A DNA stretch of 57,185 nt, counting the filler, from Streblomastix strix (Eukaryota): assembly GCA_008636045.1 (NCBI GenBank). It is 3 parts of 3 records of this genome, joined end to end, with 100 filler letters (N's around TTAATTAATTAA, not from the genome) between each part and the next. Parts side by side here need not be neighbours in the genome. Positions count along the whole stretch, not along the records: positions 19,113 to 38,103 come from SNRW01000554.1; 2 more parts are not named here. The stretch is one strand, 5' to 3'. The first letter of the stretch is position 1. Each line of letters begins with the position of its first letter. The translations under genes and the position numbers were made by a program. The notes beneath the pieces are model-generated. The model did no database searches and was not told the DNA's origin. It worked only from the letters and a program-made list of their open reading frames with translations. Below, piece by piece: positions 13,950 through 40,637 of the stretch.

Positions 13950-14853
13950 TTGTCGGTGCTCTCATCTCAGTTCTAGCTTCAAGGGGATGATTAATTTTAT
14001 ACGTTATTTATTAATCGTTTTACTAGTCATCAACTCGTTCAATAATCACTCCAAAATCAAATGCAATTATTTGTTGTTTAGTAGCCATTGGCAATTATTC
14101 ACCTCCATCATCACTTATAAACTTCTTTGCTTCGACAATATATGCTCTGAATATGTTTATCTTTATTTTTCAGACTTTTAGAGGCTTAGATATTGATAGC
14201 CATTTCATCTAAGGACCACTTTTTATTCGTTATAATTTTAATTTTGCTGCCAATGCTGCTCTTTCTAAATCGTCAAAATCTGAATAATGTTTTTTCTTCT
14301 AATTTCTTTTATACTAATACTCTGGGTCGTAAAATCCTACTGCTCTTGTATAACCATCGACTGAACAAATTTCATTAAATTTCGTGTCATAAATAACTAC
14401 ATTATCAGGTGTTGCATCATTATTATCTGAATTTTATTCAACTACACTAAATCGATTACCTAAATGTTTATCTTTTAAATATTTTTGAGCACTAACGTCG
14501 GATGATAACCTGTTGATTTTCTTAATATCTCCGCTTAAATAACCAACGAGAGTAGCAAAGACATCCCCTGCCTCTTCTCTCATTAATAAGCCTATGAGCT
14601 TTCTTGTTCTTTGAATCATTGATGGATGGAGCGGCAGCCTTCCAAACTGTTTTGTTCCTGTTCTCATTCTGTCTTATCTTATAAGCTGTGATTCTTAATA
14701 ATCGTAATCATCATAAATTCCATCAATTTCCATCAAACCACCGTTTCAAACTGAATTTTCAATTGCGCATTTTTCTGTAATAAATTCTTTTCTTGTGTTT
14801 GCTGATTCCTAATCAATTACTTATTGAATTTGATATTCCTTTAATTTTGACAT
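13950..14853 (-). pseudogene. Hypothetical Polinton-associated gene relic
   Basis: Coding-like frames (FGRLPLHPSMIQRTRKLIGLL...DNNDATPDNVVIYD...SVDGY) with frameshifts, lying between PolB and the ATPase. Confidence 0.4.
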
Positions 14854-14894
14854 TTAATTTCTTAATGATAAAAAAATGTTTTATTACATAAAAA

Positions 14895-15680
14895 TGGCGA
14901 GTTTAACATAAAAAGTTGATAATATGTTAAAAGAAAAAAGGTAAATATTCACGAAATTTTACCAATTATTCATAAAAAATTAAATTTTACAAATAATTCT
15001 GTAAATTTATCGATACGTTAGCGTGATAGTGGCAAGTCAAACAACGTCTTCAAAGAGTAAATAAAATTAATCCATTTAATGAAACAATGTTATGCACTGT
15101 TCATATACGTCATCGACTCAAATAATGACTCCACTTATAAAAAGATGAAAGATTTAATTAAAATTCCAACAAAAATTATTCCATATGCTGAAGTGGATTA
15201 AGTGCTGAATGATTTGATAGAATGCAAATAAGCGTACGATGAAATATAAATAAAATAATTATAAAATGAGCTAATGAAAGAATCAAAAGATGATATATTA
15301 ACTAATATGTTTGGAGCTAGTGGGGGAGTTAATCTTGACGTTAAATTTCCTCAAATTATCGGTTTATTTGAAGATGCAATTAGTATATTTAAAAAATAAA
15401 AATATTCTACTGTATAAAATGCTATTTTTGAACAGATAATCCAGAATAACATTCCTCCTCCGTTTATAGGATATCATTGGATTAGATGTCGCAATTAAAT
15501 CTAATCTTGATTCATAATGGTTCCTCGGATTTTTTAATAGATAAAAATTAAACTAATTTTCTATTATTCATCTAAACCATCAGATTAAGAGACAATTTGG
15601 CATGAAAATGAACGACAAACTAAAAAATAAATATTAGTGATATACAGTTATTTTTTATATGTCGATAATTACTAATAAAA
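14895..15680 (+). pseudogene. A32/FtsK-HerA-like packaging ATPase relic
   Basis: Degenerate Walker A QRDSGKS (~15019-15039) and Walker B-like IIGLFEDA (~15355-15378), with downstream IKSNLDSQWFLG. Frameshifted. Confidence 0.6.
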
Positions 15681-16300
15681 TCATTTCGAGTTAAAAAATA
15701 AAAAAATACATTTAATAACTTTTTAAATATCAATTATATTTTATTTTATATATAATTTATATATATTAATATTTATAAAAAAAATTCCATTATAATTTAA
15801 TAAACATTGAAAGGGCTACAAAGAAAAACGGAAAAAATAAAAAAAATATCGTTTTTGCAAATAATCTTGTTCGTTCATTGAACTTATTTAGATGGTGTTT
15901 AATACATAATTATATATATGTGATACATATATACAAAATAATATCAATAAAATAAAATATCGTATTATAATTAAAGATAAATTTCTATTTTCAAAATAAT
16001 ATACTTTAATTTTTTTAATAAATTTTTTTTAAAAAAAAAATAATTTCATCTTTTAAAATAAACATATATTTAAATTTTGTTAAATAAATTTATGTTAATA
16101 TATGTTGTATAAATATAATACATATGTATACCATATTTGTTGTATCTATATATCAACCGATTATCGTCATCGAATGAGTTCTTATATACTATTTGAATAA
16201 GTACCTTGTTATTACTAATCATGATTAAATATAAATATAATATTCATACAAAAATATACGCGTCAATGAGCCCGAGATAAACAGCACGGGCTGGTTCACA

Positions 16301-16681
16301 TCAATATTCCAGCATCAACTCAAGAACAAATTTTAATTAATAATTTATTTCCAATAATTCTTAATTTTAACGGAACCATATATATAAATATCTGTTGTGA
16401 TTGTATTAATTGAAAGGCTTATAAACACGTTATTCATTACAGTAGCCAATAAATTAATCGAAATATTATTCTTCTTGAACCATCGAACTATGAATGCTTA
16501 TGTCTGCATCAGAGCCTTAGTTTGAACAATGACATTAGAAAAATATTATTTTTCTTTAATTATCTGAATTTACAAACGCATAAGGTAATGCAAAACTAAC
16601 TCCATTCTAATCGTTCTATGCGATAACAACTCCATCATTTTATGTTAATGTATAATATGTAAAATTATAAACTGATGTCAT
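16301..16681 (-). pseudogene. Small beta-rich Polinton-associated protein (possible minor capsid/penton-like), frameshifted
   Basis: ATG 16681 MTSVYNF...FALPYAFVNSDN...IYIWFR...KFVLELMLEY-TGA 16301. The function is inferred from context only. Confidence 0.4.
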
Positions 16682-16831
16682 AATTGAACCTATTTATTAT
16701 AAAATAAATAAAAATAATTAATAGAAATATAACCAATGACCTATTTAATTAACCAAATTATTAATGTTTAGGTGTTAGTTATATATATAAATAAAAAAAT
16801 AAAAATGTTCTCAATTAATGATTTAATTATT

Positions 16832-17690
16832 TCAGGAACAAATTGGTCCATTTACTTCATCAAATGAATGGCTAGTATCATATATGCAGCTACCACCAGC
16901 AGCGGGTGAGAACAACCAAAATGTATCATGAACTGGGCAAAAAATCGGAGGCGATGATCTCTTTTGACTTGAATTAGCAATATAGTATGAATCTGTTGCT
17001 CCTTGATATTTTGGTGCTGCTCTGAGTTCGACAGATGTGTTTTAGTTCTGAATGTCTAGTCCATCGAAAGTTAATGCTCTGCTGCTGTTTCTTTCACATT
17101 TGGGAGAGTTATTAAAAAGCGTGTTAAATATATGCGAGGATTAAATCATCGAGTTGCTGTATTTCTTGATATTGTTAAAGCATCTTCAAATTCGTCAGTG
17201 GCTTCGAATAGCAGGTCCAAATTACTCACGTTCAACTGAAATTAGAAGAATTATTAGTCAAGAGAATTCGTTGGCATATCGAGAAAGTTGCTATCACAGG
17301 TGGTTACTTACATATTCTAATAGCAAGGATTTTCGAAGCAAGTCATAGCTCTTGCATCTTTAGGAGATAGAAGATATAAATCCGTTACGTGAGACATCGG
17401 AAATATTTTAAGATATACATATTCCAGTTAGTGTAGCAGAAGTTGGAAATGGCCATATTTCTACACGTTAGGCAGATACTACAAATGGACGTTAGCTGTA
17501 GAATTAATGGACTCGATTAAGGTATGCATCAGTAGCTTTACTACCCGCCATGTTTGCAGTTACCTCTGTTATGACATAATTTTTATGCTCATGGTAACTG
17601 GTTTGACGTTGTATACGATGTTTTTCAATCCTGATTCAGTTAGTGGTTCCGCATGTAATCCTGTTATCAAGTCTGCAGTATATCTAAATT
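16832..17690 (-). pseudogene. C-terminal part of a probable major-capsid-like protein of the Polinton-like element
   Basis: YTADLITGLHAEPLTESGLKN...EVTANMAG...RPFVVSAQRVEIWPFPTSATLTG...FEATDEFEDAL...LTFDGLD...HDTFWLFSPAAGGSCIYDT...TGA 16832. Beta-strand-rich and relatively GC-rich. The capsid assignment is contextual. Confidence 0.5.
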
Positions 17691-19012
17691 AGGTAAATAA
17701 TTTAATATAATAGACAATAAAACAATAAAAAAATTAAATCTCGTTCAGAGTGTTATTATAATTAAAATTTTAATGAAATCGTATATAGTATATCAAACTT
17801 GAAGAAATCTCTGAATTTGCCGATATTGAACATTTTATTTTGATCGGATAAGTTGTCGTCACAGGTGTCTTTGTAGTGAACTTTGGTGGGTCGAAGTTCA
17901 CAAACGGTCGCGGCTTTGACGGTTCCGGTTTTAATGAATTCTTTGAAATTTTTTGAAAATGGCCACCCAATAGATCGGATACCTGTTCGTGCACCGACCA
18001 TATTGAAGCCACAATGATACCTCAATAAAGAGATGAGATAAGGAGAGAAGGGGGCAATCAATTATTATCCTCGTCTCCCTTGGAGACAGGGTACCATTTG
18101 CAGTTAAAGTACTAGATCTGAAACAGGAAAATTCACTTAAAAAAGAATTGGGTCGAAATGATTGATTCGTTAAAAATAAAAATAACTTAGACGACATCGT
18201 CCGTCATTTGAAATAAGTTTGACGAATTTTAACAGGCCTAAATATATGTAAGTTTAATTAGATTAAGAGGTGTTTATTACAAAAATAAATCATAAATAAA
18301 TTGAATGGTAAAATATATTAGTGAAAATTTAGAAATTATGATCTTAAATTAAATATGACTAATGAATAATTAATATTTCTAAACAAAATATTATATTATT
18401 TAAAATTGAATTCAGAAAAAAATAAGAAAAAGAAGTATTAAATTATAACAAAAATTAATATTTTAAATGTTATTACTAATAGAAAGATAATTATCTTCCT
18501 TCAACTAAAAATACATAATAATTTCTACTAAGTTATATTATTTAAATAAGAGTAATAAGACTAGAATATAACATATGTTTGTATAAATTAAAATGATGTT
18601 CAAGGATAAAATTCATGACATTAAATACTAATAAAATCAAATATTAAAAATAAGGCATAAAAAAAACGAATCAATAAATAGTTAGGAAATTGAGGTATAT
18701 AAAACTAAATTGACATTGGAAAAATAGTTATGGATTAACAAAGTTCATCTTTTTCATACAAATAATACAAATATTCTCTCCAATGTCATTTATTAACTAA
18801 AGTTAATCAATAAAAAATCAATAATTAGTTAAGAAATATAATAAAAATTAGCTGATATTGATATCAAAGTATAATGCAACATAATTTATCACTTTTAACG
18901 CTTATCTCAATACCAGCATTATTATCTTTAAATAATGATTATATATTATGATTTGAATTCATATTTGTTTTTGATAATTTTTAATTATCAATAATTTTAT
19001 CATTTTATAACA

Positions 19013-19112
19013 NNNNNNNNNNNNNNNNNNNNNNNNNNNNNNNNNNNNNNNNNNNNTTAATTAATTAANNNNNNNNNNNNNNNNNNNNNNNNNNNNNNNN
19101 NNNNNNNNNNNN
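19013..19112. other. Artificial 100-nt contig linker (N44-TTAATTAATTAA-N44)
   Basis: The all-frame-stop spacer TTAATTAATTAA at 19057-19068 is flanked by Ns. An identical linker lies at 38104-38203. Confidence 0.95.
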
Positions 19113-19114: not shown

Positions 19115-22100
19115 TGATTAAATATAGAGTCTATTCCATTTCTTCTATTGATTTGATTTTTATTTAAACAATTAGGAAATATTGATTGAGCGCAATTCAC
19201 AGAGATGATTTAATGTTACAGCACCATTTTGAGGCAGACCAAGTTTAGAACATTATACGAGTGAAAGAAATTGTAGTTTTTCCAATACTTCAGGTGTTAT
19301 ACCATTCCTAATTTAAGATTGGTCATTGATAAATTAAGCATATGAACAAAGAAACAGTTTTTATACAGAATTTTACTGAATTAATTATGAATTAATATTA
19401 TCTTTTTTCATTTCATAATTAATTTCAATTTCATCACCTTAATTATATGAATTAATATTATAATCCTCATCATTGTCAAAATTATTCTAACCTAATAAAT
19501 TCGGAAGTGGAATTCTTGATCTTACTCTAATCTTATCACCCCATCTCTATTACACTTCAAATAGAGTAATTCCTTCTTCTAAATCACGAACCAAGATCAA
19601 ATCTTGTGCCAATGGGATACTGACAGGAATTGTGGCATATGCAATTCCTGTTGCACGCATCATATCATCTTATGAATTGGACAACCGTGATGTCTCCAAT
19701 TAATCTATTTCTGAGAAAGGGGATCCTAAGCGGAATTCTTAGTTTAATAAAATGTTAGTTGAATTTTGGTTTTAATCTCCTTCAATTACTGAAAAATCAG
19801 CCTCTGATGTTATAGGAAACAAATCTTTCTTATAGAAATCCTTGTCAAATGATGCTCTTGCTGTTGTAGCCCATGTTGATTTATCTCCAAAATTATCCCC
19901 ATAATCCAGATATAAATGTGAATAATTCTGCTAAATTCCATATTTTCTTCTTTATAATCTCTGTCTTGATGTTCCACTAGCTGTATTTAGAGATTTGTGC
20001 AGACCAGCTTAGGTAGCTTGTGGTGAAACAGCTATTGAAGATGAAAGTGGTTATGCAATGTGTGTGGATAGAGAAGGAAGGAAAATAGCATTTGTTGAAG
20101 GAATAAGGGAAATCAACTGATGCAAATTCGGAGAATATAATTGTGCTGAATAATCTGGTGTTTCTGACTGCATAAGAATTTATGTAGCTTCCAAAATTGA
20201 TGTAATTTAAGGTAATTTCTATAATGATTGAGACTGGTCCAAAATTTGTGTTTGATGTGACTTTGTTGGTGTGCTTGTTGGTCCTTTAATATATTCAGGG
20301 AGCAAAAGTGGCATTTTCATAACATCTCTGCTTTATTTAAGCCAATGAAGGGCATGTTTTTGAGTCTAAGTTGCATAAACAGGGGAAGTAAAAGGGCAGA
20401 ACCATGAAGTGTAGACTGCAAATGTGTGTAAAGTGTTTGTCACTGAAATAAAAGAAATCAAAGGAGTGTAAAGTGGTACTGTGAGGGGAATGTATGTGCG
20501 TTAAATAGGAATAATTTAATGTGTTGAAATTTGTTATGATTCTTTATTAGTTGGAATCTGAAGAGGTTTGATTGCAGTATTCTCTTCATGAGCAATCATA
20601 GTATCTAATGAGACATAAAATCCAAATGGCGATGATCTTCTTCTGACAGAAACAGCCTAATGAATAGAAGAGATTATTTCTCTTTTCTCAAATTCACTCG
20701 CCATTTCACCTCTTATTTCATCTTCTTACAAAAATGATATCAATCTTCCTCTTGGTGGTGCAGAAGAAGGATTCAATTATGAGCACAGACCAGGAATTGA
20801 TATCATTGCTGAGTGAAGTTGTGGAGAAAGACGAGTAAGTCGTGGAGCAGATGAAGACAATGACAGAGTAGATGGAGTGAGATCAGCAAGAATGTCACGC
20901 CATGTAAGTAAGTATCTCAATGCTGAAAGAAGAGATGCTGTTGGAGCAAGTTGTTTATTTTGGCTTCTTTTATCCTTTTCATCAGACTGAGAAAGTGGGA
21001 ATAGAGAGATAAGACCTGATGCAAAGACAATGAATTATGGTGATAATTCTTTTCTATTACAGAATATGTGTGTTGCAAGTGCGAGCGATTGTGAATGAAG
21101 AACCGCCAAACATGCGACTTTGATTGTAGACGATTATTGTTAGTTTTATGATCTTACTAAATGTTATGGAAGAATTTCCAAATATTTTCCATCAGCACTT
21201 CTGATTCCATCACATGAGTCTAACAACGCTTCCCACGAATGCAATAAAATATCTATTGAGTTGATTATAATGTGAGAAGGATGCAATCTTATATCGTAAA
21301 TTGCTCTTGCCAACCTATCCAAAATTCTGTATAATTCTGTGTGATTCGAACGAAGCACCATCTGTATTTCTTGAGATCTTTTATGACTCAACTGCCAATC
21401 ATCATCTGGATGATTGAATGGAGATGGAATTATTTGTTATATTTGAATTTATTATGATTATAATTATGTTTGAGCAGTAGATGAAGATTATTATGATGCA
21501 GTAACTTACTGCGATTATAATTTTGTTACTTGTGGAACAGGAGTTATCCGTGGAGTTGCAGTTGCAGAAGGAACAGCAGAAGCATTCGCTGAAACTGTTT
21601 AACTTGTATTCGTACTACTATTAGTAATATTATTTGTTACTGCTTTCTGAGCAACCACTGCCTTCATAAATTAAAATAGAATCTTTGTTGGAACTAAAAG
21701 AGTTCCTTAGTCAATAGATGCAAGTGAATGTCCAAACCTTGCCTCTGCCAGTTATATCCTTCTCTTATCTAATTATTTGGACCCTTAACCAAGAATCATC
21801 AAATTCTATGCATAAGTTGCACCAGCATTCTACCCTGTCATTTAATATGCTCTCTGTGAATATGCTAATGAGTATCTTCTTGCATGATCTCTAATCTCTG
21901 ACGTATATAGAATATGCGTTCTCAACTAGAAAAATAGAGATTATGGGAAAGTTTAGGCAGTATCACAAAGTACACCATGATAAAGATGACCTGTATTAGT
22001 GCCTAATTATGATAATAAGAAATATGAATGAGGAAGCCATATATGAGGTTTAATTCTTGGGAACTAACACAGAGGATATTAATATTAAGAAGAAAATTTT

Positions 22101-25100
22101 CTCTTTAATTTATTTCCTATTTAAAGAATAGCAGAAGCAGATACAGATTCTGGAATTGATTACATCAATTAATTACTAGAATTAATCAAAGTCAAAGATG
22201 ATGCTTTTCTTATCATTGTTCTTTCAACATTCTAATCAATAATTCCAGTCGTTACTCCATTTCTTTGCAAATAAATAAGCATTAGAGATGTTAACTATTA
22301 CCCTTTTTAAGGTCTTAATAAAATAGATGTTAATAATGAAAGTGAAATTGAAGAGAAAGAAGAATGAGGAAAAACACCAGGAATTTGGGGAAGAGAGAAA
22401 TCTTTATCTGAAACATTTGAATTAGATTGGTCTGATTGTTGAATTTGGTCTAATTGTTGAATTTAGGCTAATTGCTATAAAGTTTGTTGTTGCTGCTATT
22501 ATTATTACTATAATTATTATCTTGTTTGTATCACTCTCTGATACACAAGAGGAGATTTCATATTAATATTTCCGCTTCCACTCATTATTGGCTATTTTGC
22601 TATTTATTATGGTATTGATGACGTAATTTATTATGAGCCTATATTTTATTCCTTCAAATGATTAGATAATTTCTCGATCAATAATTTTGGTATTTCTGGA
22701 GTTGATCTATGTGCAGCCCAAGAAGATGCTTGCAAATAATGATTTTTATTATTATTGTAGTCATTAATGTTATTATTGAACAAATTATTATTATAAATAC
22801 TTGCACATACAACAATAAGAGGTGGGATCACAGCCATTCCGAATCTTCCCAACCCAAATGGCATTTCATTTATGATCTGTTTATTTGCCTTTATTAATAT
22901 TTAACCCAATAACATCCAAGATTTAGGAGATTGAGGTTGTTATTATGTTAATACAAGAGAAGTTTGAAGAGATTAAGATAATGAAGATGATGATTAAGAT
23001 TAAAATTAATTAGGCAACATCATTTATATTTACACCCATGATTATGTTCCAATATAATCTCGTCTAGAAAGGAGTAGCACAGGTTAATTGAATCCAGATT
23101 ATATAATAAGACCATTATTTCCCTTTATTTCTTTTTACTCTTTATTATTATTAGTATAAGTGTAATTATTTGATATTAAAATTCCTTATTATCTTTAATG
23201 CAAGATATATTTATGCTAAATATTTGAAGTAAGTCGAGAAGAACCATTAATTCCCTCAAATCTCAAAATCCTTGATTCAAGCTATTCAGGATATCTTTAT
23301 TTCTTATTATTCTAAGCCATATCAATTTCTTTTTAATTTCCTTCTTTTTCTGTAGATTAAATTTCTATCATTTCATCCTCATCCACATCTTCAGTTGTAT
23401 CTAATAGTGCTTTTAAACCAACAATTAATCTCGGAGTATCTCTCAGTTTCTTTAAATCTTAATCTTCATCAATTTACATTTAAAATGACTATTGTAAAGA
23501 TGAAGATATTGAAGAGGAAGATGGTGAAGTAGATATATTATCAGACTGATTTTGACTTTGAGGGAGAAGATGATCTTAATTTTGTTATTGCGATGTAGAT
23601 TCTTATGATTGTTATATTTATTATTATGGGTTTAAAGCTATTTAATTAATCTTAATTCCCCTTAAAGTAATATTCCTCAATGATTATCTGGTATTTAATA
23701 AAGAAAGATGCCTGGAAACAGTTAAAGAATCGGAGTATTTCATCAGTCTTCTAATCACCGATGCAGATTATGTAATAAATGATGAATATGAGCTATATTA
23801 ATTTCTAATATTAGCGCGTATTGGTGTAGGAGAATCGACTACTGTTGATCTCCAAATTGCTGATTAATGCCAATGCGAAGGTGTATGAAATGAAGATAGT
23901 GATCTATTAATCCATTTTGATGTGAGGGATATTAAAGAAGATGAAGATTAAGAAGATTAAGTAGAATAAGAAGTAGAAGAAGATTGTGGAGTAATGATGG
24001 GTATTTGGTTTGTGTCTTGAACTTCACTATTTAATTATTAAATACTATTATTTTCTTTTCTAATTTCCTGTTCTTTCTTATTTTTACCATTCACAGAATC
24101 AACGCATTCTTAATAGAACTCATATACATCAATTAATTATTATAAATATTTATTGATATTCAATTAATAATATCCAAAAATTTCTGGACCTTTTCTAATC
24201 TCCTATTATATCCATATAATAGATTTTTATATCTCTTCTTTAATCTTATTGAATATTGATAATGTGAAGAATCTTAAATTTTATTCTTTCGCTCTTCCTT
24301 ATTAAATATCAAAATTATAATGTGAAATTCCTCTATATAACAAATTCAATAATGAAAACGTTGTTAAATATATATTTTTCCCAGAATTGAACAGTGATTC
24401 TATATTATTTCCCAATTTTTGTGCAATTTCTTTAATAACTCTTGAATAATATATTGGTCCCATTTCAGCTATTGTTTGAATATACTCTTCAACTTCTTCT
24501 AAAGATTTATTCAAAATCAATTAACTATTCATTATATCTAAATAAAACTTTGTTTCATTTGTATTTTTAATAGATTTATTCATTATTTCACTTAAAATTT
24601 AAATCTCTTATGATTGAAGTGCATTTGGAAGTAGTGAAGGATCGATAAGTTTTAGTGCTGAGATAAATACATCAGATGGATCAAGTAATGAATATGAATG
24701 AAGATGATTAGAAGGAATTGGATGTGTAAAAGAAGAAATAAATGGTAAAGCAGCGGATTAGGGATGTTATATTGAATGTTATTAAAAATGATGAGTTTGA
24801 TTTTGAATAAATTGCTGTTGCTACAATTATGTTAAAGGGGTATGTTATTGAGTAAGCAATTACTTTTATTATTACATCTACATTTGTTGAAAAAGAAATT
24901 ATTATTTCTATTATTATTACTATTCTATCATTTTATTCTTTATTGAGACTTCTTTGATAACATCTCTCATCAATTTCTCATTGTTATATCCAAATAAAAC
25001 ATTTGGTCTTGCATTTGATAAATCAATTATTCTTTAATGAGCTACTAAATGTTTTTCATCTAAATCTGGGAAAAGTGATTAAGGAAGTTGTGTTTCATTA

Positions 25101-28100
25101 GATAAAATATAATAGAAATTACGAGAAATGAATTCCTATGGTAATAAAGATTGAATGTGTTTAGGCAATTCGTGAAGCACATGACGAAAGAATGAATGTT
25201 GATATAGTGAAAGAAGACGTTGAATCTGCGGATGATGTGAAGATTCTCTCAAAAAAGAAAATTTAAGATTATTTTCATTTTGCAATGAGAGTAAATTTAT
25301 AATTATTTATTGGATATCAGGAAGTGAAGCTCCAGTTAAGGAGAAAGGAGATTATTAATTTGGATAATGAGCTATGTTATAAAATGCCAATTTATTAATT
25401 GGAGCCTTTATTTGTGTAAGTTGTGGATAAATAAGTGATTAATGAAGAAGAAGAGGATTTTAAAGTTATATAGAAGATGATGGTGATGATTATTATTTAC
25501 TCAAATTCTATTTGGTCTGATTGTTTACATTCATATTCATCATTTTTTCTACTAAATTATCAAATTTCTTTTAATTTAATGGAGCATGCATATATAATTA
25601 CTATTGTGATATATCATATGCATTAATTATTGCAGATGTTACACCTGTTCCAAATTATGTCAATAAATTCTAAATAATTGGCAAATGATGTACTGAAGTA
25701 TTTTAAGATGATGATGATTGAGATAGATGTGATATTTGTTATCTGTATCTTTCATCTCTTTCTCTTTCTCTTTCTCTTTCTCTCTCTTTATCTTTGTCTC
25801 TCTCATTTCCATTTCTATTCTTGTCTCCTTCAGCTCCACCTTTTAGGCCACCAGGAACTGAAACAATATGAACCTATTCTAATTCATTATTATTGTGCTC
25901 TTACTATTTATCCTTTTCTATTTGCTCTATATCTTTATCCATTAGAGGATTATTATCTGGAACTAAATTGATGTTATTAAGTTCATCGTTAATTAAAGAT
26001 TGTTCATTAAATGTTGAAGAATCAGAAGAATCAGAAGAAGAATCAGAAGAAGAAGAAGAAATATAATTAGAATTTGAATTTGAAACAGAATTATTTGAAA
26101 TTTCTGCATTTTCATTTTCGCTATGTGCTTTCTTTTATTAATTTCTTCTTCTTTATTCGTTAATATTTTCTTCTACTTCATTTTCATCATTTTGTTCACT
26201 TTCCAACATAGAATCATCATCTTTTATATCATTTTCACATTATTTACATCCTTATACAGCTATTTTTCCCCAAATTTCATTATCACTTCTATTATCAGAA
26301 TCATCAATCTAATATTCATCTTCAATATTTTACTCATTTTCCTATTTTTATTCTATTTTAATTCTTTAATAATCACCATCATCTTCATCTTCACTCTCTA
26401 CAAGTTCAATTTTCAATGAATGTTGAATTATTGATTATTATTCAGATGATTAATTTGGATTTGTTTCATTTGGCACAATTTTTGAATCTTTATTCTCTTC
26501 TTTCTCATCATTTTATTCAATATCCTTTTCCATTTCTTTTTAGTCATCTTAATTTTTATCAATTCCTTTATCTGTTGTAATATTATTTGTTTTATTAATC
26601 TATATATCTATTATCCTTTTCTTCTTCTCATATTTAATCCATTTTAATCTTAATTTCTATAACTTATGAATTATTATGTCTTCCGTATTCTGCATAATCC
26701 CAATTCCATCTTCTTCGTCATATTCATCATCCTCATCAAAATCTTCTCTTTTCCCTATTCGCCTTCCATTGACTCTTTCAGTGTCCATCTCTCCTCCTCT
26801 TCTTTCATTGACTTGAATATTGATACCATCTTCAGTTACTGGGGAATACTTATATGAAGGTTTATTTGAATATGAATTTGGAAGAGGAAATTGTGAAGAT
26901 CCGCGAATGAATATTGAATTTTATCTTTTAAATTGAGAGAGTTCATGAAGAGATGAGAATGAAACGTGAGAATGATTGGTTAGTTTTGTATCAGATTTGT
27001 TTGCATTAATAGTATTGTTATCTTATATATCATTTAAAGGTTCAGGTTATATATTATTTTGATTAGGAATCTAGTTCTCTATCTCAATTTCATCTTCTTC
27101 TTCATTATCATCCTAATCTCTTCCTATTTCTTCTTTTTCATTATTTTCTCTTTCTTGTTGTTTCTCTTCTATGCTATTCATTATCTTCTACATTCCAATA
27201 TCATATTCTCTCTTAGCTTTCTTTCCTAACCAATATCTTTTCCCTCTTTAAATAATAACCCTTCTCTTTATGTCACTGACTTCATTATACGATAACAATA
27301 AATGAGACATTGAAAGAAGCCATGTTTTTGAATTGGAAGCTGAATGAGCATAGATTGAAGAAGGAATAGTGAGAGATGGTGAAGAATATATAGAGTGATT
27401 ATCTTTGTTGTTAAGTTGATTATATTTGTTTTGTAGTTTTTATTTCAGTTTGAAGAGAGTGATAGCCCTGTCAAATGGCGTTTCAATATACTAATTATTA
27501 TTCACCTTTTTTTGTGGCTTTCCTTCTTTCTTCAATGATGATGGTTATCCTTTATTCTTTTCTTGATCTTTACTTTTTTCTTCAATATTTTTATCTTTTA
27601 TTTCTTCATAATCTTATTTTTCTTATCTAATATATTCATTCACAATCCTCTATAATAAAGGCCATCTTATATTTGGAAGCTAATAAGGATAAAATAAAGA
27701 CAGACAATCTCCTTAATTAATAAAATTTGATGAATGTTATTATTCTAGTCTTTTAATATCAATTTATGATTTATGAATAGAAAATAAAGGTTGAAAAGAA
27801 GATGCTTACTCTCCTTTAATATTATTTTATTTCATTTATTATAATATATATTATGATATATTTGTTATCATTCCCGTTTCATTTCCTCTATTTACATTCA
27901 CATTTGACAATTACTGTAGCCATCCACCTCTCTTTTCACTCTCTAGTTCAATTAAAATTCTTTTTTACCTCAAATTTCCATTAAAATAAGAACCAGAGAA
28001 TGAATCAGATGGAAGCAATGATTGCAGAGAAGGTGGTAAGTAAACAAATGTATTATGAAGAATAAAAGGAGGAAGAGAAAGAATAGGAGAATGAAAATTG

Positions 28101-31100
28101 TATGGCATGTGAGATGAACGAGGAAAATTTGCAGAAGAAGTTGAATAAGACAGAAAATAGTGTTTAAAGTTATGATTAATGAATTTATTATTATTAAGAT
28201 TGTTTCTCATTTTTTTCTTTCTCCTTTATTTTTTCATTAATTAATTTATAGAAATAATTGAGTTAGAATCAGAATCTGTTTGCGATTAAGTAATAGAAAG
28301 AGATGATGATGAATATGATGATATTTAAAATGAATGGGGTAGTTTATTATCATCTGACGAACAGCTATTTTCCTTTGTTAATTCTTTCTCTTTTTCCAAT
28401 TCTTTTTCTTTCTCAACAACATCTTTTTTTATCTTCTTCTTCTTATTTTTGTTTGCTTTTTTCTCTCTTTCTTTTTCTAACTCCATTTCTCTTTCTTTTT
28501 CTTTTACTCTTTCTTTTTCTTCTTCTTCTTCTTCTTTTCTCTTTTTCAATTCAATCTACATCTATTTCTTCTTTATCTTTTTCTTTCTCTTCATTATTCT
28601 TTTCTTTACCACGATCTTTTATTTTTAAAATTCTTTTTTCATTTTCATTAATTGATTTAATTAAATTCCATAATCTTGCCTGGAATCGCCTGAGTATGAT
28701 TATAATCTACATTTATACAATATTCTCAAAGACTAATTGTTTAATAAATTTAAATATTCTTAATTTTTTTCTTACAAAATATATTATTAATTTTATTAAA
28801 GCTTTATTTGTTGTGAAGATGATAATTAAGCAGTTGACTGTGATTAAAAATATAATAATGAATTTGTATCAGTATCTTTTTCATCAATTCTAAATTCATT
28901 TCTCAAATCTGGCAAACTGAAATTTTTATTTATATTTAATCTATTTTCCATCATTCTGTTATTTTATTCTTATTATTATGTTTATAAATACAATTATTGT
29001 TATAATTACTAATTTTAAGATGGTATTCTCTTCATTTTTGCCTATATATAATTTAATTTAATTTAATTATATAAATATAATAATCTTTACTAATTTAGTA
29101 TTTAATAAATTCCAGTTTTATGCTATATATAATTATTATGCTATTATTTGAACAAATTATAGATTGTGTTGGATTCTGAGAAAGATGATTATGGAGTTGA
29201 TAATAATGAATTAATAATACTTCCTTTTGTATTTGAAAAGAATTAGGCTGCAAGTTAACCATTATTTTCACTATTTCCATATGCATTTCCAATATTTCCT
29301 TTATTTTCTATTGTCAATTAAGATTTAATGTTATTAACTATCATTCCTTATTCTATTACATTCAAACGACTGTAAAGTTAAGGCAAAAACAATTAAGAAA
29401 ATTTTGATGAGTTTTTATAGGATATAAATGATAAGAAACGGAATGAAGAAAGAAGCTAAGATTAATATGAATATGATTAAGATGAAAGAGAATTGAAGAA
29501 TGAAAGAGTTTGATGTTTTATTTAATTCAATTTTTCGTTTTAATCATGTTTATTATTATTATTTATATTTTTATATTTAACTTCTTTCAATTTATCTCCA
29601 AATTAAGCTGTGTGCAAAGCAAATTGTAAATAATCATTATTTCCTTCTCCATTAAGTTCTTATTCTTATTCATATTCTCTTCCTTTCTTTTTAATTTGCT
29701 TAATTCTTTTTCTTTCTCTATTTTCAATTTCTCTTTTTATTCTTTCCCTCTCTCTTTTTCTCAATATATTTCTATAAATGCTATCAGTAGCTCCAAGTGA
29801 ATAATAATCAATAATCTCTTTTTTATTGATATCTTTTAATTAAATTGCATTAATTTTTTATTTAATTTCATTTATGCGTTTGTACAATTATGTTGATGAA
29901 GAAGAATATGAAGATAACAATGGGTCAAATTATTTAATATAGTATTAATATTATTTCTCAAATTTCTTATAAATATTTTCTCTCGTATTTGCTTCTCCTT
30001 ACTGTAATAAATTATCTTGAAGCACTTTTTCTTAATAATCTTATTAATTTGTAAAAAGAGGCAAAATTAATTGCGTAAATAAATAAGGAAATCCAACAGG
30101 GTGATAAAAAGAATAGTTTAAAACATCGTTAGATAACATTTCTATCCTTTCTTATAAATTTTATGGGAGTATTTAATGCAAAAATGATATTAGACGATGT
30201 CGGAGGATTAAATTTGATGATGTCAAAGAAGATGAGGTCTATGGAGACTATTAAAATGAAAGATAAGAAATAGGAATTGAGGATTATTAGAAAATGTTTT
30301 AATTCTCTAAGTTATAACTCCTAGCAAAAAATGTAGATCTAAGACATATATGGAATATTTACATGAAAAAAGATGAATTAATATTCATGTTAATATTCAA
30401 ATTTGAATTTGAATAATTATATAATTATGAAGATAATGAAGAAGTGGAAGATGATGATGATGACGATTATTATGACAATTAGAGAGGCAAAATTTGTTAC
30501 TATTTATTTCCCTTATTATCAATTTTCTTTATAATAATATTTTGGCTATTTCCTGTTGGGTTTTATTATTGAGATTAAGGAATTTAAATTTATTGCTGTT
30601 GCTATTTTGTCCTGACATTCGGCGTCACTTAATTCTAAATATTAATTTATTATTATCCTCCCTAAGACGATTATGAAGAAAATGCCATTTGTTAAAATCC
30701 TGCAACATGTGTTATTTAATTTATTTGTTATTACTATTAAGATTATGATTATTAAAGTTATTATTATAAAGAAAGCGCAGTAGGTTAAACAGTTTGAATT
30801 TATCGTTGATTTAGCTATTATTATGATGATAACGATGTTGCTGTTGATGACTAAGAATAATAATTAACTAATTAAACAGAAGAAGTAGCAGCAGGAGATT
30901 ATTATTATTATTACGATTGCTTAATAATTTATTAAGAAGAAGATATTGTTGCATTTCCTTATTTAATATTTGTATTCCCTTTAATATCAAATTATTATTA
31001 AAAAGAATTCTAATAATTAATATTGTTCTATTATAGCTATTCATCTGCAGGAAGGATTAATTATTCTAATGAAACTGAGAGAGAAGCTTTTTAATAGGCA

Positions 31101-34100
31101 AATTATATCAATTCTTTATCCTCATATAATTATTAAATAAATTATTATTAATAAGCAAATGAAGAAGATAATGAAGAACTTTATTATTATATTTATTTAT
31201 ATAATTTTAATAATATTTATATAAGATTGAGATAATATGGATATAAATTTGATAATAATTACCACATTTACAATCGTTGAATAGAAAGAAGGTGAGGGAA
31301 ACGAAAACTGCGAATTGTTTTAATCATTCGAATTTTTGAAGGAGGAGAAGATGAGGAAGAAGGGTATTAAGAAAATTATTATTAATAATTATTCTCTTCA
31401 GATATCTTTTGCTTTATCATTTTTTCTATTATGCATGGTGGATAAATAGAAAGAATTGTATTAAAATAATGATCATGAGGAAGATTATTAATATTACTTT
31501 AATTTATTCCAAATTTCTATTTTTATTATTATTAATCTTACTCAATAATAATTCCCAGTTCATCTTATTTCAATTCTTCTTTTATTTCCAAAATTTCACT
31601 TTCATATTCATTCAAACTGGGACATTCGCATATTAATCTTACAAGCGAATTAATAAATAGTTTTAGTGACAATAGAATAAATTAAATTTTATCTTTATTA
31701 TCTTTTAATACATTATTCATATTAATATTCATTGAAGTAGTAATGTTGTTAATCAAATTCACACTTTCCTCTTTTTCAATTTCAACCATTTTGATTGTCA
31801 TTCTCATTACCTCTTCTTTCTTTTCATATCCAATCGGTTCAACAGAAATCCATATTATATTAAATAATTCAAATATTTCAGTTATTATTTCAGAATCTCT
31901 GAATTGTTATAAAAAGAAAGGAAATTTATCAATAAGAAAAGAAGAAAGTTTGAGAAATGGTTGATTGGATTACGTAAGAGAAGGTTAAGCTGCCTATTTT
32001 TATTTTTATTGTAGAATTTTTTCTACATTATTAGAATCTTCGATCCCCTTTTCCTAATAACACAATATTCCTTAATCAATTAAAACTAGTTCCCTTAAAG
32101 TTTGAATAAATAGTGAAATTTTTATTTTATTCTTTTGTTCTTATCTTTGAAATTCAATTTTTTATTATTATAGCTGTGATTAATATATCTATTACTATTA
32201 CTATTATGAAAATTATGGTTAAAATTATTATTATGATGATTAAGGTTGTTACTAAGTAGAAGATATAGAAGGATGATGTTATTGTGCTTATTAGGAAGGG
32301 CGAGATTATGGAGGAGGCATCGCATTGGAGTCTGAAGAATCTTATTATTACACTTAATACTGCTAATTAATGTTTATTTTCTATCCTTAATTAATTGCAA
32401 CATTGTTTTATACATTTCCAGATGTTACAGTTGCTCTTTATTATTATAATTAGGAAGGCGTTTATAATTAAATCTAAGAAGGCAGTTATTATTATTACTA
32501 TTATTATTATTATTATCCACTTGTTCTATCTATATTAGCAACATTCAATCCAGTCATATTTCTCGATTATTATTACTGAAATTATTATTAAATTTGTGGT
32601 TATTTTTCTTAATTTATAAGCATTTATTATTATTTAGATAATGATTATTGTGTGTTTTAAAGTAACTTTCGTAATTTAGACATAATTTCTTAATAAAAAA
32701 TTTAAATATTACAAATTCCATCTTTGCTTATTCGACGAAATCGATCAAGTTCAGAATCATCAACAACATCTTCAATATTATCTTCTTCTTTATCATATTC
32801 TTCCTCAGCACTATTTTCATTTTCTAATTTCTTATCATCTAAATCAATCTCCATTAATCCTTTTCTTTTCTTATCTTTATTGTACTATTTTATAATATTT
32901 CCATTATATAATCTCTTGGATAATACAATATTTATATCATTGTATTCTTTATTCATTTCTCTTCCTTCTTCTTTGATTACGTCTATTTCCTTATCCATCT
33001 TACTATTAATTATCTCATTCTCGATCTATTTCACATTCTTGTTCTTATTTATTTCTATCAAATTAAACTCATTAATAACAGAATAAGGATAAAGTGATGC
33101 TAAAAATGAAGCACTCTCTAAAAATTTCAGTTTTGAAATCTCACTCTCCTTTTTATCACCTTCTTAACTATCTGAAGCAATGTCAAATAGTAATAATATA
33201 TATATAATATAATTATTATTTTTTATTAATAGTGCATTCGATTGCAAGTTTGAATTTAATATAATAACTGTATTTCTGACATTTTATAGATATTTATATT
33301 TTAAAGCTAATTAAATTAAATTCTTTACAATAAAATCGGCAGCAAAGATGTGATTTTCTGAAGAGTTACAATGAATAATAAGTAAAATAAAAAATAAAAT
33401 AAATTTTATAATAATAATCGAACCTTTCCTCATCCTTTCACTTAATTCCTTTGCAAATGAAATAAATCTGTTATTTTCTTATGCAAGCATTTTTAAACAA
33501 CTATACATCATCAATGTATCTTTTTCATCATATTTTTCATCTAAATCATGGAGAACCTATATATAATTAACAGTAACTTCACATGCTTATCTAATTGATT
33601 CAAAAGCCGATTTGAGATTCTTATTTTCTCCTTTGAATTATTAGTCCAACATTTAAATTCTTTCTTTTATTTGTAATATTTCATTATCTAATGGAGTGCA
33701 GAGATTTAGTTAATGGAGTGATTATAGAGAAGAAGATGATGATAAAGAAGGAGGAGGAGGGGAAGGTGGTAGCTGAGATTATTGTTATTGAGAAGATGAT
33801 GGTTATTATTATGAAGATGAAACCTGAGTCTATTACTATTAAAGTTCTTATATTATTATTTGATTCTATTATCCTTATATTTATTTCTCCTGTACAACTA
33901 ATTTCCTCTGCTATTTCATTTTCTCTTTATCCTTTAGCTTTGCTTATTCATTATATAATAATTAACATAATTTACTCACCTTAATTGCCAATTTGTCAGA
34001 ATTACGAAAAACTAAATTATCTTAAGGCAAAGCTAGCTATTAATATAATGCAGGAGGTAAAGGAGGCAAAGGAGGTGAGGGTGCAATCGTTTATCCTGGT

Positions 34101-37100
34101 TATTATTATATCACAATGGAAGTAGCTGCATGAGCACCTTAAGTTTATTATTATAAGTTTCCAATCATATTCATTAATAATTATTATTCTTTTTCACTCC
34201 CACAAATATCCTCAAATTTTTTCAGATACGTTTCAGAATAATTCTTCATTTTATTTAATGAATATCGTTTTAATTAATTAATATATTTAATATTGACTGG
34301 AGAATATATGGAAGAAATTATATATGGAGGGAATATAGAACATTAAGAACCAGGATGATGTATATTGTTAAGTTTTAATGGATTAAACTTTTATAATGAT
34401 ATTTCTGTTAGTTTATCTATTTAAGGCAATTCATTATTGTCAATGTAATCATTTTCAATATTTTCTTCAATTACTCCTCCTGCTTCTTCCTCCTCCCTTT
34501 CCTCATCATCATCTTCTTCTTCTTCTTCTTCCAATACATCTCTCATTTCCTCCAAATCTCTTTTTGTATCTTCTTCATTTTATTTCTCAATTTATTGTTC
34601 TAATTCTTTCATTTCTTATTCCTTTATCTTTTAGTATTCCAAATATTATTATTCTCTTATTTTTTCCTCGTCTACTGCTTATTCTTTATCTTTTTACATT
34701 TTTGGCCCTTTTTCTTTTCTTTATTTTTATTTTTATTATTGTTGTTCAAGTTCTTTTTATTTCTATTTTTCTTTTTCTTTCTTCTCTTTTTCCTTTTTTT
34801 CTTTTTCTTTCTCTTTTTCTTTCTCTTTTTTCTTTCTTTTCAATTCTTCCTCTTTTATTTTTCCTTTATCCTTCTCTTTATTTTTCTCTCTTTCAATCTC
34901 CTTCTCTTTATCTAATTATTATTATTATTCCTCTTTTCTTTTCTTTTCTCTCAATTTCTCCTTTTAATTTTCCTTTTTCCATTCTTCCTGTGCTTTCTCT
35001 CCAAACGCTACTTCAATTAATTAAGACCAATTACCAACTTGATCTGAAGTAATAGATTCAATTTCCTTACTTCTTTAATGGAAATGAAGGATTTATCTAA
35101 TTGATTGTGTGACTTAATTTACGATTGGTCTATCTTCTAATTCATATGATGTTACGAATAGCATTAATTAAGGAAGAAATAATTTTTGTGATAAAAATAT
35201 CACTTCCCGAGATTAAAGGATGCATTCATTCAGTTTAAGTTACCAATGAGATTGACTCTTTTATAAATATGATTATTGTTATTATTATAACTTTTGAGCT
35301 TGAGAAGATAAAAATGGAGATTAAAATTATTGTAATGGCGATAAATGTATTTATTCATTATCTTTATATCCTATTTAAGCAAATTTCATCAACTCAAGAA
35401 GGATTTTAACCCATTTTGGTGTCGAATAAGGCAATTTATGTTCTATTTACCTTTATTCAAATGGGTAGTTAATTTGCTTATATTAACGTGGTATTGGTAA
35501 TTGTTATTTATACTGTGAAGATTATAATGATGTAGATATTGAATTTGAAGGAGGTGAACGGGATGATGGAGTGGAAGGAGATTATGACCGTAAAACATCG
35601 ACTTTCTAATTCTATTCTTTTTCTTTCGTATCAATCTTAGTTTCATCTTCGCCAAAAATCTATTTTAATATACTATTTTCAAATTAATCAAATATGCCTA
35701 TTTAATTTTAAGATTTAAGTGAACCAGGGTGACCATAAAGTGAATAAAATCCTGAAATTTATGATTTTAATTTAATTTAAGATATAATATTAAGTTCCGG
35801 AGGAATAAGCCTGTCTAAGAATATAAGATATTAATATCTCTTCCTATACTATTACTTGCTTATGTCATTTGAAACTTTTCTTTTTTATTCTTTCTCTTCA
35901 TCTGTCAAATCTTCTTCTTTATTTAATTCACTTTCGTTTTCTTAGTTATCTAAAACATTACTAAATAAATCATATTTATTTGTAAAATTAAAACACATAT
36001 GTATTCGTTCATGCTGCTATTATTATTGTTCATTTGAGTCAGGGTAAGGAATTTCTATTTCATTTAATTATTGATTAATTAATAACTAGTTAAAGAATTA
36101 AATACGATTATCTTGTTTTTTTGATGGATATTTTAATTGCAAAGATGTAGGTTGTGTTGAAGATGATGATTATGATGATGAAGAAGATGATGTTGGTTAA
36201 ACTGCAAGTAACCTTTCTAACTTAACTTTTTCTTCATAATTCAATAATTTCTAGATCACCAATTTCTGAACCATTCGAGCAACTCGCAAAGGATTTGGTT
36301 AATTAAAAGCTTAATTATCATTATTTTCATTAAATTCCTCTAATTCAATTTCTTTTCATTCTTCGTTTTTATTTTCTTCATTTTTTTCAGTGTAATTATT
36401 TATTTAATTCCATTCGTTATCATTCCAAATTATAATCAATGGAACTATGCATGCTATCAAATTTTTTAATATTTCTCCTTCACTTTCTATTTATTTGTAA
36501 CATTTTTCGTAAAATTTTTATTCTATTGTGTACTATTAAATTTTATTTTGTATTTAGGTATATTACTAAAGTTGCTATTAACTAAATTGTTATTAATGAT
36601 GTTATAATTATTGTTGCTATTATTTCTATTAATATAATATAATTAGTTATGAATTGATATTTTATTATTATTATTTACTATATTAATATGAAAGCATTAT
36701 ACTCTCCGATTCTCCTTCCAATACCCTGTTTTATGTTAGAATTATGTTTATATATAAAGCTAGCAAGTCATTCACTTACAATTTGCTATAATAAGCAGAA
36801 ATTACAGCTAAATAATTTGGGATAAGAGTATGCATGTCTTTTATTTATAAAATGAATATGAGAATTCGATGGGAGAAATTGGTAGGAAGATGAAGTAAAG
36901 AGAGAATAAATGTAGTGAAAAAGAGAATTTCGTGTAAGAGGCCGGGATCAGAAACTAAATTCTGATAAAATAAGTGAATATTTGATGAAGAAGATGAATC
37001 ATGTTATTCTTAATCTTCTTTTTCCTTTTCCAAATTACTGTTTTCTTAGTTATTATCCTTTTCTCCTTTTCTTAATTATTATATTCTCATTTTTTATTCA

Positions 37101-38101
37101 GTTTATTATGCACTAAGAATAGCCTTAGGAAAAATAAGACCTTCTTACATATAAAATTAAAGAATGAGAGAAAGAACTGAAGATGAAAATGATGATGAAG
37201 AAGAAGAAGAATACTTAGAAGATTTTTATTTATTTGTATATGTCCAGCTATTAATATTCATTCCTTTCCAAATAATTTCTCTCTCATATTAAGACAAACA
37301 TCCTCCTTCCCCTTCTTCATCTTCATCTCCTGTCATTCTATTATTTTCTTTTTAATTTTCTTTTTCTCTTGTATCTTCATTTCTTTGCTTTCTTTGCTTT
37401 AATTCTCTTCTTCTACCTCTCATTAATTATGATAATGAATATGCAATTGGTTCAGCAACAAATCGAAGGAGTGTTCTTTTAAGCTATTTAGAGAATTGCA
37501 TATTTGAAGGTGAGGATGGAGTAAGTGTGGTTGATATTTGAGAAGATTGAGGATTAGGAGGCTTAAATATATAATTAGTTATTAATCTCAATATTTTAAC
37601 TCGTGTAATAATAGGAAATATAACAGGGAATTCAAATAAGAAGAATTTTTGTATAAAAGAAAAATCTTCATTTAATTCCGACGTTAGGATTCGTGTAAGA
37701 CTAAGAATGGAAATGAATTAGTAATGTGTAAGATTATCAGCAAATTAAGATGGTTTTCTTTCATTTTCATTTTTTTCTCCTTTATACACTTCTTCTTTGG
37801 AACTTATTCTCAGATAAATAATTAATGCACCACTAATCTATCTAATTATATCAATAATTCCAGTATCATATGAAATCAATTGGAATAAAAGTGGAGAATT
37901 AACAGTTAAATATATAAAAGAATTGATTACATGAGTGAATTATTGTATAATCTGTTATGAATATGAATATTATTATGAGGTTTATGAAGAAAAGTAATAT
38001 TATGGCTCGTTTTATATTACTGATAAAATTAATTATGATTTAAATTTAAACATAATAAAATCATCTTTTAATCTCAGAATTTCTTCTGTCGTAAAATCTT
38101 G
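19115..38101 (-). CDS. TRRAP: TRRAP/Tra1-like PIKK-family protein (HEAT-FAT-PI3K-like), partial at both ends; ~6,330 codons in one frame
   Basis: With TAR=Gln one minus frame is open across the whole contig except for TGA at 36356-36358. Tra1-like motifs occur in the expected order: LTIPSSIYAHSASNSKTW (~27320), SQQQLYMHA (~25590), WINRSLSSFHTPSHWHQSAIWR (~23850-23915), YLQA (~22730), AQTFPQSLFFQLRT (~21917-21958; cf. Tra1 YPQALHFQLRT), LRYLLTWRDIL...SIPG (~20790-20920) and IPVSIPLAQDLILVRD (~19585-19632; cf. LPIAIPLSPQVRIMND). Confidence 0.78.
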
Positions 38102-38103
38102 AA

Positions 38104-38203
38104 NNNNNNNNNNNNNNNNNNNNNNNNNNNNNNNNNNNNNNNNNNNNTTAATTAATTAANNNNNNNNNNNNNNNNNNNNNNNNNNNNNNNNNNNNNNNNN
38201 NNN
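38104..38203. other. Artificial 100-nt contig linker
   Basis: N44-TTAATTAATTAA-N44, identical to the first linker. Confidence 0.95.
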
Positions 38204-38769: not shown

Positions 38770-40378
38770 ATTAAAATAAAGATCAAATGGATTGGATAAT
38801 AAATAAAAAAATAGAGATCAAGTAGATTGGAATAAAAATAATATAAATTAATTAAATCTGTAGATGGTTTTTAAATTAAACAAAAAATTATTTAAATAAT
38901 TGAATTTAAATATAAAAAATATCAAGTAGACTAGATTTTAATTAAACTAAAAAAAATATCCAGTGAATATGATTTTAATCAAATTAAAAATATATCCAGT
39001 TAACTGGATTTAAATTAAATTAAAAAAAATATCAAATGGACTGGATTAAAACAAATTTAAAAAAATTTCGAGTGTACTGGATTTAAATTATATTAAAAAA
39101 ATATCCAGTGGATTGGATTTAAATTAAATTAAAAAAAGTATCCAATGGATTGGATTTCAATTAAATTAAAAAAATAACAAGTGAGCTGGATTATAATTAA
39201 ATTAAAAAATATTCAGTTGACATGATTCAAATTAAATTAAAAAATTATCGAGTGGACTGGATTTAAATTAAATTAAAAATATATCCAATGGACTTGATTT
39301 AAATTAAACTAAAAATAAATATCCAAAAGATTAGATTTTAATTTAATTAGAAAAATATCCAATGGACTGGATTTGAATTAAATTAAAAAAATTTTGAGTG
39401 TACTGGATTAAAATTAATTTAAAAAAATATCGAATGGACTGGATTCAAATTAAATTTAAAAAATATCCAGTGGACTGGATTTAAATTAAATTAAAAAAAT
39501 GTATTTAGTGGACAGGATTTAAATTATATTAAAAAAAATATCCAATGGATTGGATTTAAATTAAATTAAAATAATATTCAGTGGACTGGATTTAAATTAA
39601 TTTAAAAAAATATCCAGTGGACGGGATTTAAATTAAATTAAAAAAAAGTATGTACTGGACTGGATTTAAATTAAATTTAAAATATTTCCAATGGATTGGA
39701 TTTTAATTAAATTAAAAAAATATCGAATGGACTGGATTTAAATTAAATTAAAAAAATATCCAATGTACTAGATTTAAATTAAATTAAAAAAAATATCCAG
39801 TGGACTGGATTTAAATTAAATTAAAAAAATGTATCTAGTGGACGGGATTTAAATTAAATTTAAAATATATCCAATGGATTGGATTTTAATTAAACTAAAA
39901 AAATATCGAATTGACTGGATTTAAATTAATTTAAAAAAATATCCAATGTACAGGATTTAAATTAATTTAAAAAAATATCGAATGGACTGGATTTAAATTA
40001 AATTAAAAAAAATATCCAGTGGACTGGATTTAAATTCAATTTAAAAAATATCCAGTTGACTGGATTTAAATTAATTTAAAAAAAATATCTAGTGTACTAG
40101 ATTTAAATTAAGTTTAAATAATATCCAGTGGATTGTATTTAAATATAATTAAAAAAATAACGAGTGGACGGGATTTAAATTAATTTAAAAAAATATCCAA
40201 TGGATTGGATTTTAATTAAATTTAAAAAATATCGAATGGACTGGATTTAAATTAAATTTAAAAAAATATCCAGTTGACTGGATTTAAATTAAATTAAAAA
40301 AATATCGAATGGACCGGATTAAAATTAATTTAAAATAAATATCCAGTTGACCGGATTTAAATACAATTAAAAAAAATA
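38770..40378. repeat. ~39-40 bp tandem satellite, consensus AAAAAAATATCCAGTGGACTGGATTTAAATTAAATT, roughly 35-40 copies
   Basis: Directly visible. Each unit holds the inverted repeat ATCCAG-TGGA-CTGGAT. Copies are more degenerate toward the left end, and there are no unique spacers. Confidence 0.95.
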
Positions 40379-40379
40379 G

Positions 40380-40637
40380 GATTAACTTTTAGACACAACT
40401 TTTTAGAAAATCCAAGAAGACCTGAAGAAACCATTTGATGGAACAGAAGAATGGAAGTAAGAAATAGTTAAGAATAAAGAAAATAGTTGTTAACTAATAA
40501 GATCGAATTTGAAAGGAAATGTTGTTGCAATATTCGGAAGATAATTATTAAAGCTGGTGTAATAGAAAGTTTCAACTTTATATTTGAAAATCGTTAGATT
40601 AAATCATTAGCATGAACATACTCATTGACATTTTTGT
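40380..40637 (+). pseudogene. Exon relic of a lineage-specific helical-repeat gene family, truncated by an insertion starting TAGGGTTGTAGCC
   Basis: After an AG acceptor it reads DQLLDTTFQKIQEDLKKPFDGTEEWKQEIV...(frameshift) KAGVIESFNFIFENRQIKSLA*TYSLTFL. Confidence 0.45.

Follow-up and report, generated by a model that had tools for sequence, protein, structure and literature searches.

A lone in-frame UGA in a giant, possibly Tra1-like reading frame of Streblomastix strix

How does a reading frame of several thousand codons accommodate a single UGA deep in its interior, in an organism that has only UGA left as a stop codon? Streblomastix is reported to read TAA and TAG (TAR) as glutamine (PMC13002328). 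In this nuclear code (table 6), found in S. strix and a related oxymonad lineage, UGA is a pure stop, and a UGA in mid-gene calls for extra explanation. Below, we consider whether the codon is real, whether it could be bypassed, and whether it could simply mark a gene copy that no longer works.

Frame, gene identity and codon use

The window, by which we mean the whole 57,185-nucleotide stretch of DNA that was analysed, consists of three contigs (19,012, 18,991 and 18,982 bases) with two 100-base N spacers between them. The 12-base core of these spacers is presumably an all-frame stop linker. The frame runs from contig join to contig join and fills the ~19-kb middle contig, and hence its start and its true stop are missing. 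It is open solely with TAA and TAG read as Gln (table 6); with table 11 there is no long frame at this locus. In likeness to the known code, its 6,329 codons include 516 TAA and 97 TAG, next to one TGA, a count that reads through one 66-nt in-frame intron-like stretch (33423–33358). The two other frames of the same strand contain 131 and 259 TGAs, and therefore a frame with only one is not due to chance. The GC content of the window is 26.2%, and a value of 26.6% is given for S. strix in Table 1 of PMC10703272.

The TGA lies on the minus strand at 36358–36356, where the plus strand reads TCA. Its codon context is GAA GAA TGA AAA GAA, and its protein context EKNEENKNEE*KEIELEEFNE. The sequence-only reading of this locus had described a lone in-frame TGA in a frame of ~6,330 codons, with ~580 open codons upstream, ~5,750 downstream and no frameshift or other stop. 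Our counts agree on each of these points across the 19 kb of the contig (Table 1).

The same reading had named the gene TRRAP/Tra1, the PIKK pseudokinase of SAGA and NuA4/TIP60, a name that is weakly supported. Like Tra1, the predicted protein is giant, and Tra1 is the only PDB match to a segment close to its C terminus. A 73-residue piece gave only two hits at E ≤ 10, both to Tra1 chains (E 1.2 and 1.4), in a match of 42 residues to Tra1 positions 3135–3176 of 3825, which we take to be the FAT-FRB junction. The other searches did not bear the name out. Three further short pieces and a 967-residue piece gave no PIKK hits in the PDB. The Pfam families Tra1, FAT and PI3K went undetected in 41/41 search windows at E ≤ 0.1, where divergence and inserts may hide them, and no PI3K-like pseudokinase domain was detected in the roughly 940 residues between the motif and the end of the contig. 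Word-based protein searches (subjects of 1018–2905, 3480–11076 and 275–875 residues) found no homologues, an exact look-up gave 0/6, and metagenome contigs and prokaryote genomes contained no homologue spanning the TGA. A single-sequence structure model (pLDDT 34) had no Foldseek match at E ≤ 0.001, which is uninformative given the poor model. Our literature search found nothing on TRRAP in oxymonads.

The frame also differs from yeast Tra1 in its size of at least 6,329 codons versus 3,744 residues (PMC5576489), in the low-complexity inserts (Gln/Ser/charged) that separate hydrophobic segments across 19115..36355, in the lack of a detected Pfam PIKK/Tra1 domain, and in its missing ends. Judged from its sequence, the gene may be Tra1-like, and its identity as TRRAP/Tra1 is weakly indicated. 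Tra1 is reported as essential in S. cerevisiae (PMC5982823), and the essential role of this gene had been put forward as an argument against a fixed nonsense codon. That argument is weak, because the identity comes from one short match and essentiality is known in yeast, not in oxymonads.

Codon usage offers a direct view of the meaning of UGA. The share of A-ending codons across six A/G codon pairs of the frame is 79%, from which about 26 of the 33 Trp-type codons would be expected as TGA. Instead, we observed one TGA versus 32 TGG, with 35 TGY in addition. The probability of this 1:32 ratio is about 6e-21 at 79% A-ending codons, and 4e-9 at 50%. UGA is not in routine sense use in this frame. 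A general assignment of UGA to Trp or Cys was rejected on the same counts, and the earlier suggestion of an ordinary but rarely used sense codon does not survive them either. The glutamine reading of TAR fits a CAA/TAA exchange between haplotypes at 37387, and a retroelement frame read with this code gave a Pfam match to reverse transcriptase (RT; E 5e-26).

Other codes with a reassigned TAR show some likeness to this locus. Parduczia and Condylostoma are known to give UGA a dual meaning, a usage placed in ciliates (PMC5304391), while UGA = Trp is placed in Blastocrithidia (PMC5304391, PMC10089648). These codes, too, have UGA deep in long frames, far from the 3′ end. However, they use UGA freely, with 2,518 coding TGAs reported for Condylostoma magnum (PMC10089648), whereas the frame studied here has one. 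Within the window, no tRNA genes were found. Among the literature matches listed, no title dealt with UGA read-through in oxymonads, and for metamonads we found no report of a code that can use all three stops as sense codons.

Lone TGAs also occur in other frames of the window. A kinase gene with five introns (3281–1, minus strand) has a lone TGA at 1233–1231, followed by about 410 open, coding-like codons up to the contig end. This stretch has no in-frame TGA, versus 8 and 31 in the other frames, and no good intron covers the codon. Its HRDIKP motif is intact while DFG reads DFE, and from its motifs we take the gene to be casein-kinase/TTBK-like. A retroelement at 53428–49800 (minus strand), presumably DIRS-like, comprises a gag-like ORF and the overlapping RT ORFs (Pfam RVT_1, E 5e-26); its RT frame has one in-frame TGA at 50086, past which the domain continues, and the site had no match in viral contigs. 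Decayed ORFs at about 10500–18100 (minus strand), with in-frame TGAs at 10988 and 17148, had no database hit and, as we assume, resemble Polinton-type polymerase B and capsid genes. Single-lesion copies are thus common in the window, as seen from the lone TGAs in the kinase, RT and Polinton-like frames, and the kinase also fits tolerance of UGA. The window further holds a hAT-type transposase (8191–5616, minus strand; Pfam Dimer_Tnp_hAT and DUF4371) with one frameshift near 6900–6800, and AT-rich tandem-repeat tracts at about 38900–40600 and at 2240–2570, the latter within one of the kinase introns, which contains a 10-base N gap.

Table 1. Features of the frame and its surroundings, in window coordinates
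Feature	Position	Strand	Basis or remark
Lone in-frame TGA	36356..36358	-	Codon count; also in X1 and X2 contigs
581 open codons before TGA, cut at contig start	36359..38101	-	No family match
5,747 open codons after TGA, cut at contig end	19115..36355	-	Open-frame count
First in-frame ATG after TGA, 27 codons on, C at -3	36272..36274	-	Three out-of-frame ATGs ahead (36359, 36330, 36321)
Synonymous difference, Ile ATT/ATA, on TGA-bearing X2 contig	36434..36434	-	Contig comparison
42-nt Gln-rich stretch, apparently absent in frame from minor X1 haplotype (depth 12.6)	36540..36581	-	Visual reading of the fork; point of resumption located
Probable intron, candidate from sequence: 66 nt, GT..AG, in frame, free of TGA, T content 58%	33358..33423	-	Read through in frame
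Tra1-like segment W...LLSQL...FPQSLFFQLRT	21917..22042	-	PDB match; motif at residue 5385 of 6329
Contig join, 3′ end of gene missing	19013..19112		N spacer with 12-base all-frame stop core (presumed linker)
Contig join, 5′ end of gene missing	38104..38203		N spacer

The codon in contigs and haplotypes

Four termite-gut sequencing runs are listed, from two studies; three of them hold part of the stretch, and none is on record as RNA. Run X1 may be the source of the window, while run X2 comes from a different study and year. An X1 contig covers the TGA with 293 bases at a depth of 48.1 and no differences. The X2 contig spans 315 bases at a depth of 3.1 with two differences, of which one is listed (36434) and none is listed at the codon, and the TGA sits at least 139 bases from either end of it. 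Presence in contigs of two studies makes a one-off base-call or amplification error unlikely, and the former had been named as a finding that could undo the case. Hence, the TGA is a real, isolated UGA in the DNA. It is common to two near-identical haplotypes, the X1 and X2 contigs, where the synonymous difference at 36434 may be an error at the low depth of X2. Coverage of the codon comes from X1 and X2; runs X3 and X4 gave no record there, which is no proof of absence.

None of the records compared (7/7 from X1, and the 8 listed of 19 from X2) has a sense codon in a contig that spans the site. Contigs may hide alleles, however. At 37388 and 37589, the X1 contig reads T where the window and X3 read C. 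Single-base alleles are thus dropped from the X1 contigs, so that they do not show the absence of an intact allele. Further X1 haplotypes are visible as alternative contigs at 37061–37113 (depth 25.5) and 37700–37753 (depth 31.6). In addition, contig forks flank the TGA contig on both sides, with depths of 43.7 versus 7.5 and 40.9 versus 12.6, and the minor branch of the latter apparently lacks a short Gln-rich stretch (Table 1).

In X2, the versions of the gene between 35034 and 37497 range from 0–3% up to about 9–16% different. This spread suggests several related lineages or copies. None of the divergent X2 contigs listed (up to about 16%) covers the TGA. Short low-identity X1 and X2 records over 36334–36410, one of which has five gaps close to the codon, were discounted as GAA-rich repeats that belong to other loci. 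An X3 contig of 1,367 bases, matching the window at 37380–38000, extends 746 bases beyond 38000. It thus passes position 38103, where the window's contig starts, and may include the 5′ part of the gene that is missing here.

Routes around the codon

Removal of the TGA by an ordinary short intron can be rejected. A 60-base stretch with the codon at its centre scores like coding sequence (0.119, with a frame median of 0.118 and −0.04 to −0.26 in intron-like stretches). Scores are low, at −0.03 to 0.04, in the held-out windows between 36658 and 36419. Frame-keeping GT..YAG pairs of 45–400 nt span the TGA in 14 combinations, of which the best scores −6.6. In comparison, the reference for this score, all six intron-like sequences in the window (6/6, picked by eye), reaches +1.9 to +10.2 in a leave-one-out design. 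Moreover, the T content of seven measured candidate stretches over the TGA is 25–29%, versus 45–59% in five reference introns, a comparison in which two kinase intron boundaries are off by one base. The T-rich, G-poor body and 3′ tract are not present in the candidate introns over the TGA. This is consistent with the sequence-only reading, which had seen no convincing short intron at the codon and had described the site as charged; we find the surroundings coding-like as well.

The 5′ splice sites in the window are degenerate (GTGCCC, GTATAA, GTATGT, GTAAAT and GTTTGT). A weak cryptic intron is therefore conceivable where an ordinary one is not. It would be 144–381 nt long, keep the frame and remove the TGA from part of the transcripts (intronization), with decay removing the rest. 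The 14 spanning pairs leave room for it, but a pair of this kind exists for 95% of all codons, and the best one over the TGA ranks at only the 34th percentile of all codons in a scoring model built on six by-eye introns. The low T content of the candidates argues against it too, as does the reported length of Streblomastix introns, 46–229 nt with T-rich 3′ ends (PMC1501061). We consider this route unlikely. Introns of 3n length look over-represented (14/25, P 0.016) in a small sample with boundaries by eye, comprising 3/4 measurable kinase introns (window 3083–1954; one with an N gap left out) and 11/21 lengths in Table 2 of PMC1501061. With TAR read as Gln, 3n introns can be read through.

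Alternatively, ribosomes may pass the codon. Leaky or position-dependent read-through of UGA, likely with insertion of Trp, would involve a release factor that already ignores UAA and UAG, and a low yield of the scaffold protein would have to suffice. In support of this route, the frame is otherwise perfect over its entire length, the TGA site is charged and coding-like, and contigs of both studies carry the TGA with no alternative shown. The kinase gene provides a second lone TGA (context A-TGA-A) with a long open stretch behind it and no good intron, but with its DFE in place of DFG this example may be decaying. No 3′ stem-loop was found: the 150 nt downstream of the codon fold at −18 kcal/mol (z +0.65), and 146/200 shuffles are as good. 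Leaky read-through contexts have C at +4, as in UGA-CUAG, whereas the context here is UGA-AAAG. Without a stem-loop and without intron-like cover, no dedicated bypass signal is seen. Furthermore, basal read-through in eukaryotes is usually about 1% or less, which counts against this route. In yeast, UGA-A is reported to favour Trp-tRNA, although read-through is highest with C at +4 (PMC4748822). The dual-meaning UGA of Parduczia and Condylostoma is a precedent, yet one TGA per 33 Trp-type codons contrasts with the thousands in C. magnum. Read-through is, in our judgement, doubtful, though the strongest of the bypass routes.

A bolder form of this idea is that an oxymonad reading UAA and UAG as Gln also passes a mid-gene UGA at a frequency sufficient for a giant nuclear scaffold gene to function, and that this represents an early, rare-use stage of a code that can use all three stops as sense codons. 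We regard this proposal as somewhat more doubtful again.

Less likely than a cryptic intron would be a split gene. A first chain of at least 581 residues would end at the TGA, and a second chain of 5,720 residues would start at the next in-frame ATG (36274), by re-initiation or from a transcript of its own. Eukaryotic ribosomes re-initiate poorly once they have translated a long ORF, which counts against the first of these options. The ATG at 36274 carries a C at −3, and three ATGs in other frames come before it. Coupling of stop and start at 36359, where the two overlap as ATGA, was rejected, as the ATG there is out of frame and its reading stops after three codons. The 81-nt spacer between the chains is in frame and coding-like, and is far below the mean intergenic distance of 870 bp reported for M. 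exilis (PMC6759080). On the other hand, we found no homologue linking the upstream part to the downstream one, and in yeast Tra1 the N-terminal Finger is described as a solenoid distinct from the Ring (PMC5576489).

Differences between gene versions lend the split gene some further support. We scored 41 differences singly, namely the 40 listed out of 73 and one more; two of the 41 may come from repeats. Upstream of the TGA, 13 of the 27 listed differences are synonymous, where 21–29% would be expected (P 0.002–0.03). Downstream, the 4 synonymous differences out of 14 are indistinguishable from neutral (P 0.34–0.61) and also from the upstream part (Fisher P 0.32).

Recoding of the TGA as selenocysteine, or RNA editing to UGG, seems very improbable. 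In the rows searched of the supplement to PMC10703272, SelB and SEPHS are entered for S. strix, while the cells for SEPSECS, PSTK and SBP2 are blank. There is no Cys or redox motif at the TGA, which lies in a charged run of E, K and N, and no Rfam match was obtained in the window, the 3′ UTR lying outside the contig.

A possible sheltered nonsense allele or tolerated stop

As the best single explanation, we tentatively propose a young nonsense allele that is sheltered by an intact allele or copy, in which case the TGA haplotype would likely produce no full-length protein. A single base change, most likely from TAA (Gln) to TGA, would have occurred recently on a common haplotype. Translation would terminate at the UGA, and the transcript would probably be subject to nonsense-mediated decay (NMD); Streblomastix is reported to have UPF1 (PMC1501061). 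Cover for the dead haplotype would come from an intact allele or copy that these contigs do not show, presumably in a cell whose genome is present in more than one copy. The sequence-only reading, too, had considered a second intact copy, which would make this one a young pseudogene. The locus resembles known nonsense alleles and young pseudogene copies (NMD substrates) in having one stop in an intact frame, one change away from a common sense codon, with no bypass signal and with several haplotypes. The shelter is further supported by the dropping of alleles in contigs, the neighbouring decayed copies and a large mutational target. In all, 1,414 codons of the frame are one change from TGA, 516 of them TAA, and about 5 new TGAs would arise per 1% of neutral divergence. 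Depending on the transition bias, TAA accounts for 36–66% of the one-step paths to TGA, which makes TAA (Gln) to TGA the likeliest origin of the codon.

Several results speak against this sheltered allele. Unlike a typical nonsense allele, the stop-bearing form is seen in two studies, its intact partner is not seen in the site-spanning contigs, and the 19 kb of the frame contain no further lesion. At 0.3% neutral divergence, about 1.5 more TGAs and about 4 frameshifts would be expected in a dead copy, and none were seen. With the assumed indel rate, the probability of no second lesion is about 0.005 at 0.3% divergence and about 0.17 at 0.1%. Hence, either the codon is of very recent origin or it is tolerated. 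Of the 315 bases of the X2 haplotype, 2 are different (95% range 0.08–2.3%); these differences may be errors, but going by them the TGA may not be very young. The clean 19 kb is the strongest point against the sheltered allele. In addition, the unbroken X2 contig at its low depth would fit a fixed codon better than an allele at half frequency, and the related M. exilis is reported to be monoploid (PMC6759080), which counts against shelter as well. Taken together, the readings in which the codon is bypassed outweigh that of a null allele.

What the codon means for the biology of this protist depends on which explanation holds. A dead allele under shelter would be ordinary. It would still show that, in an AT-rich genome with TAR read as Gln, 8% of codons (516 TAA/6,329) lie a single transition away from the sole remaining stop, and that more than one genome copy is likely present in this protist. 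A codon that is both fixed and translated, however, would offer a natural snapshot of UGA starting to lose its role as a stop in a lineage other than ciliates and trypanosomatids, and a case in which to test how release factors abandon their last stop codon.
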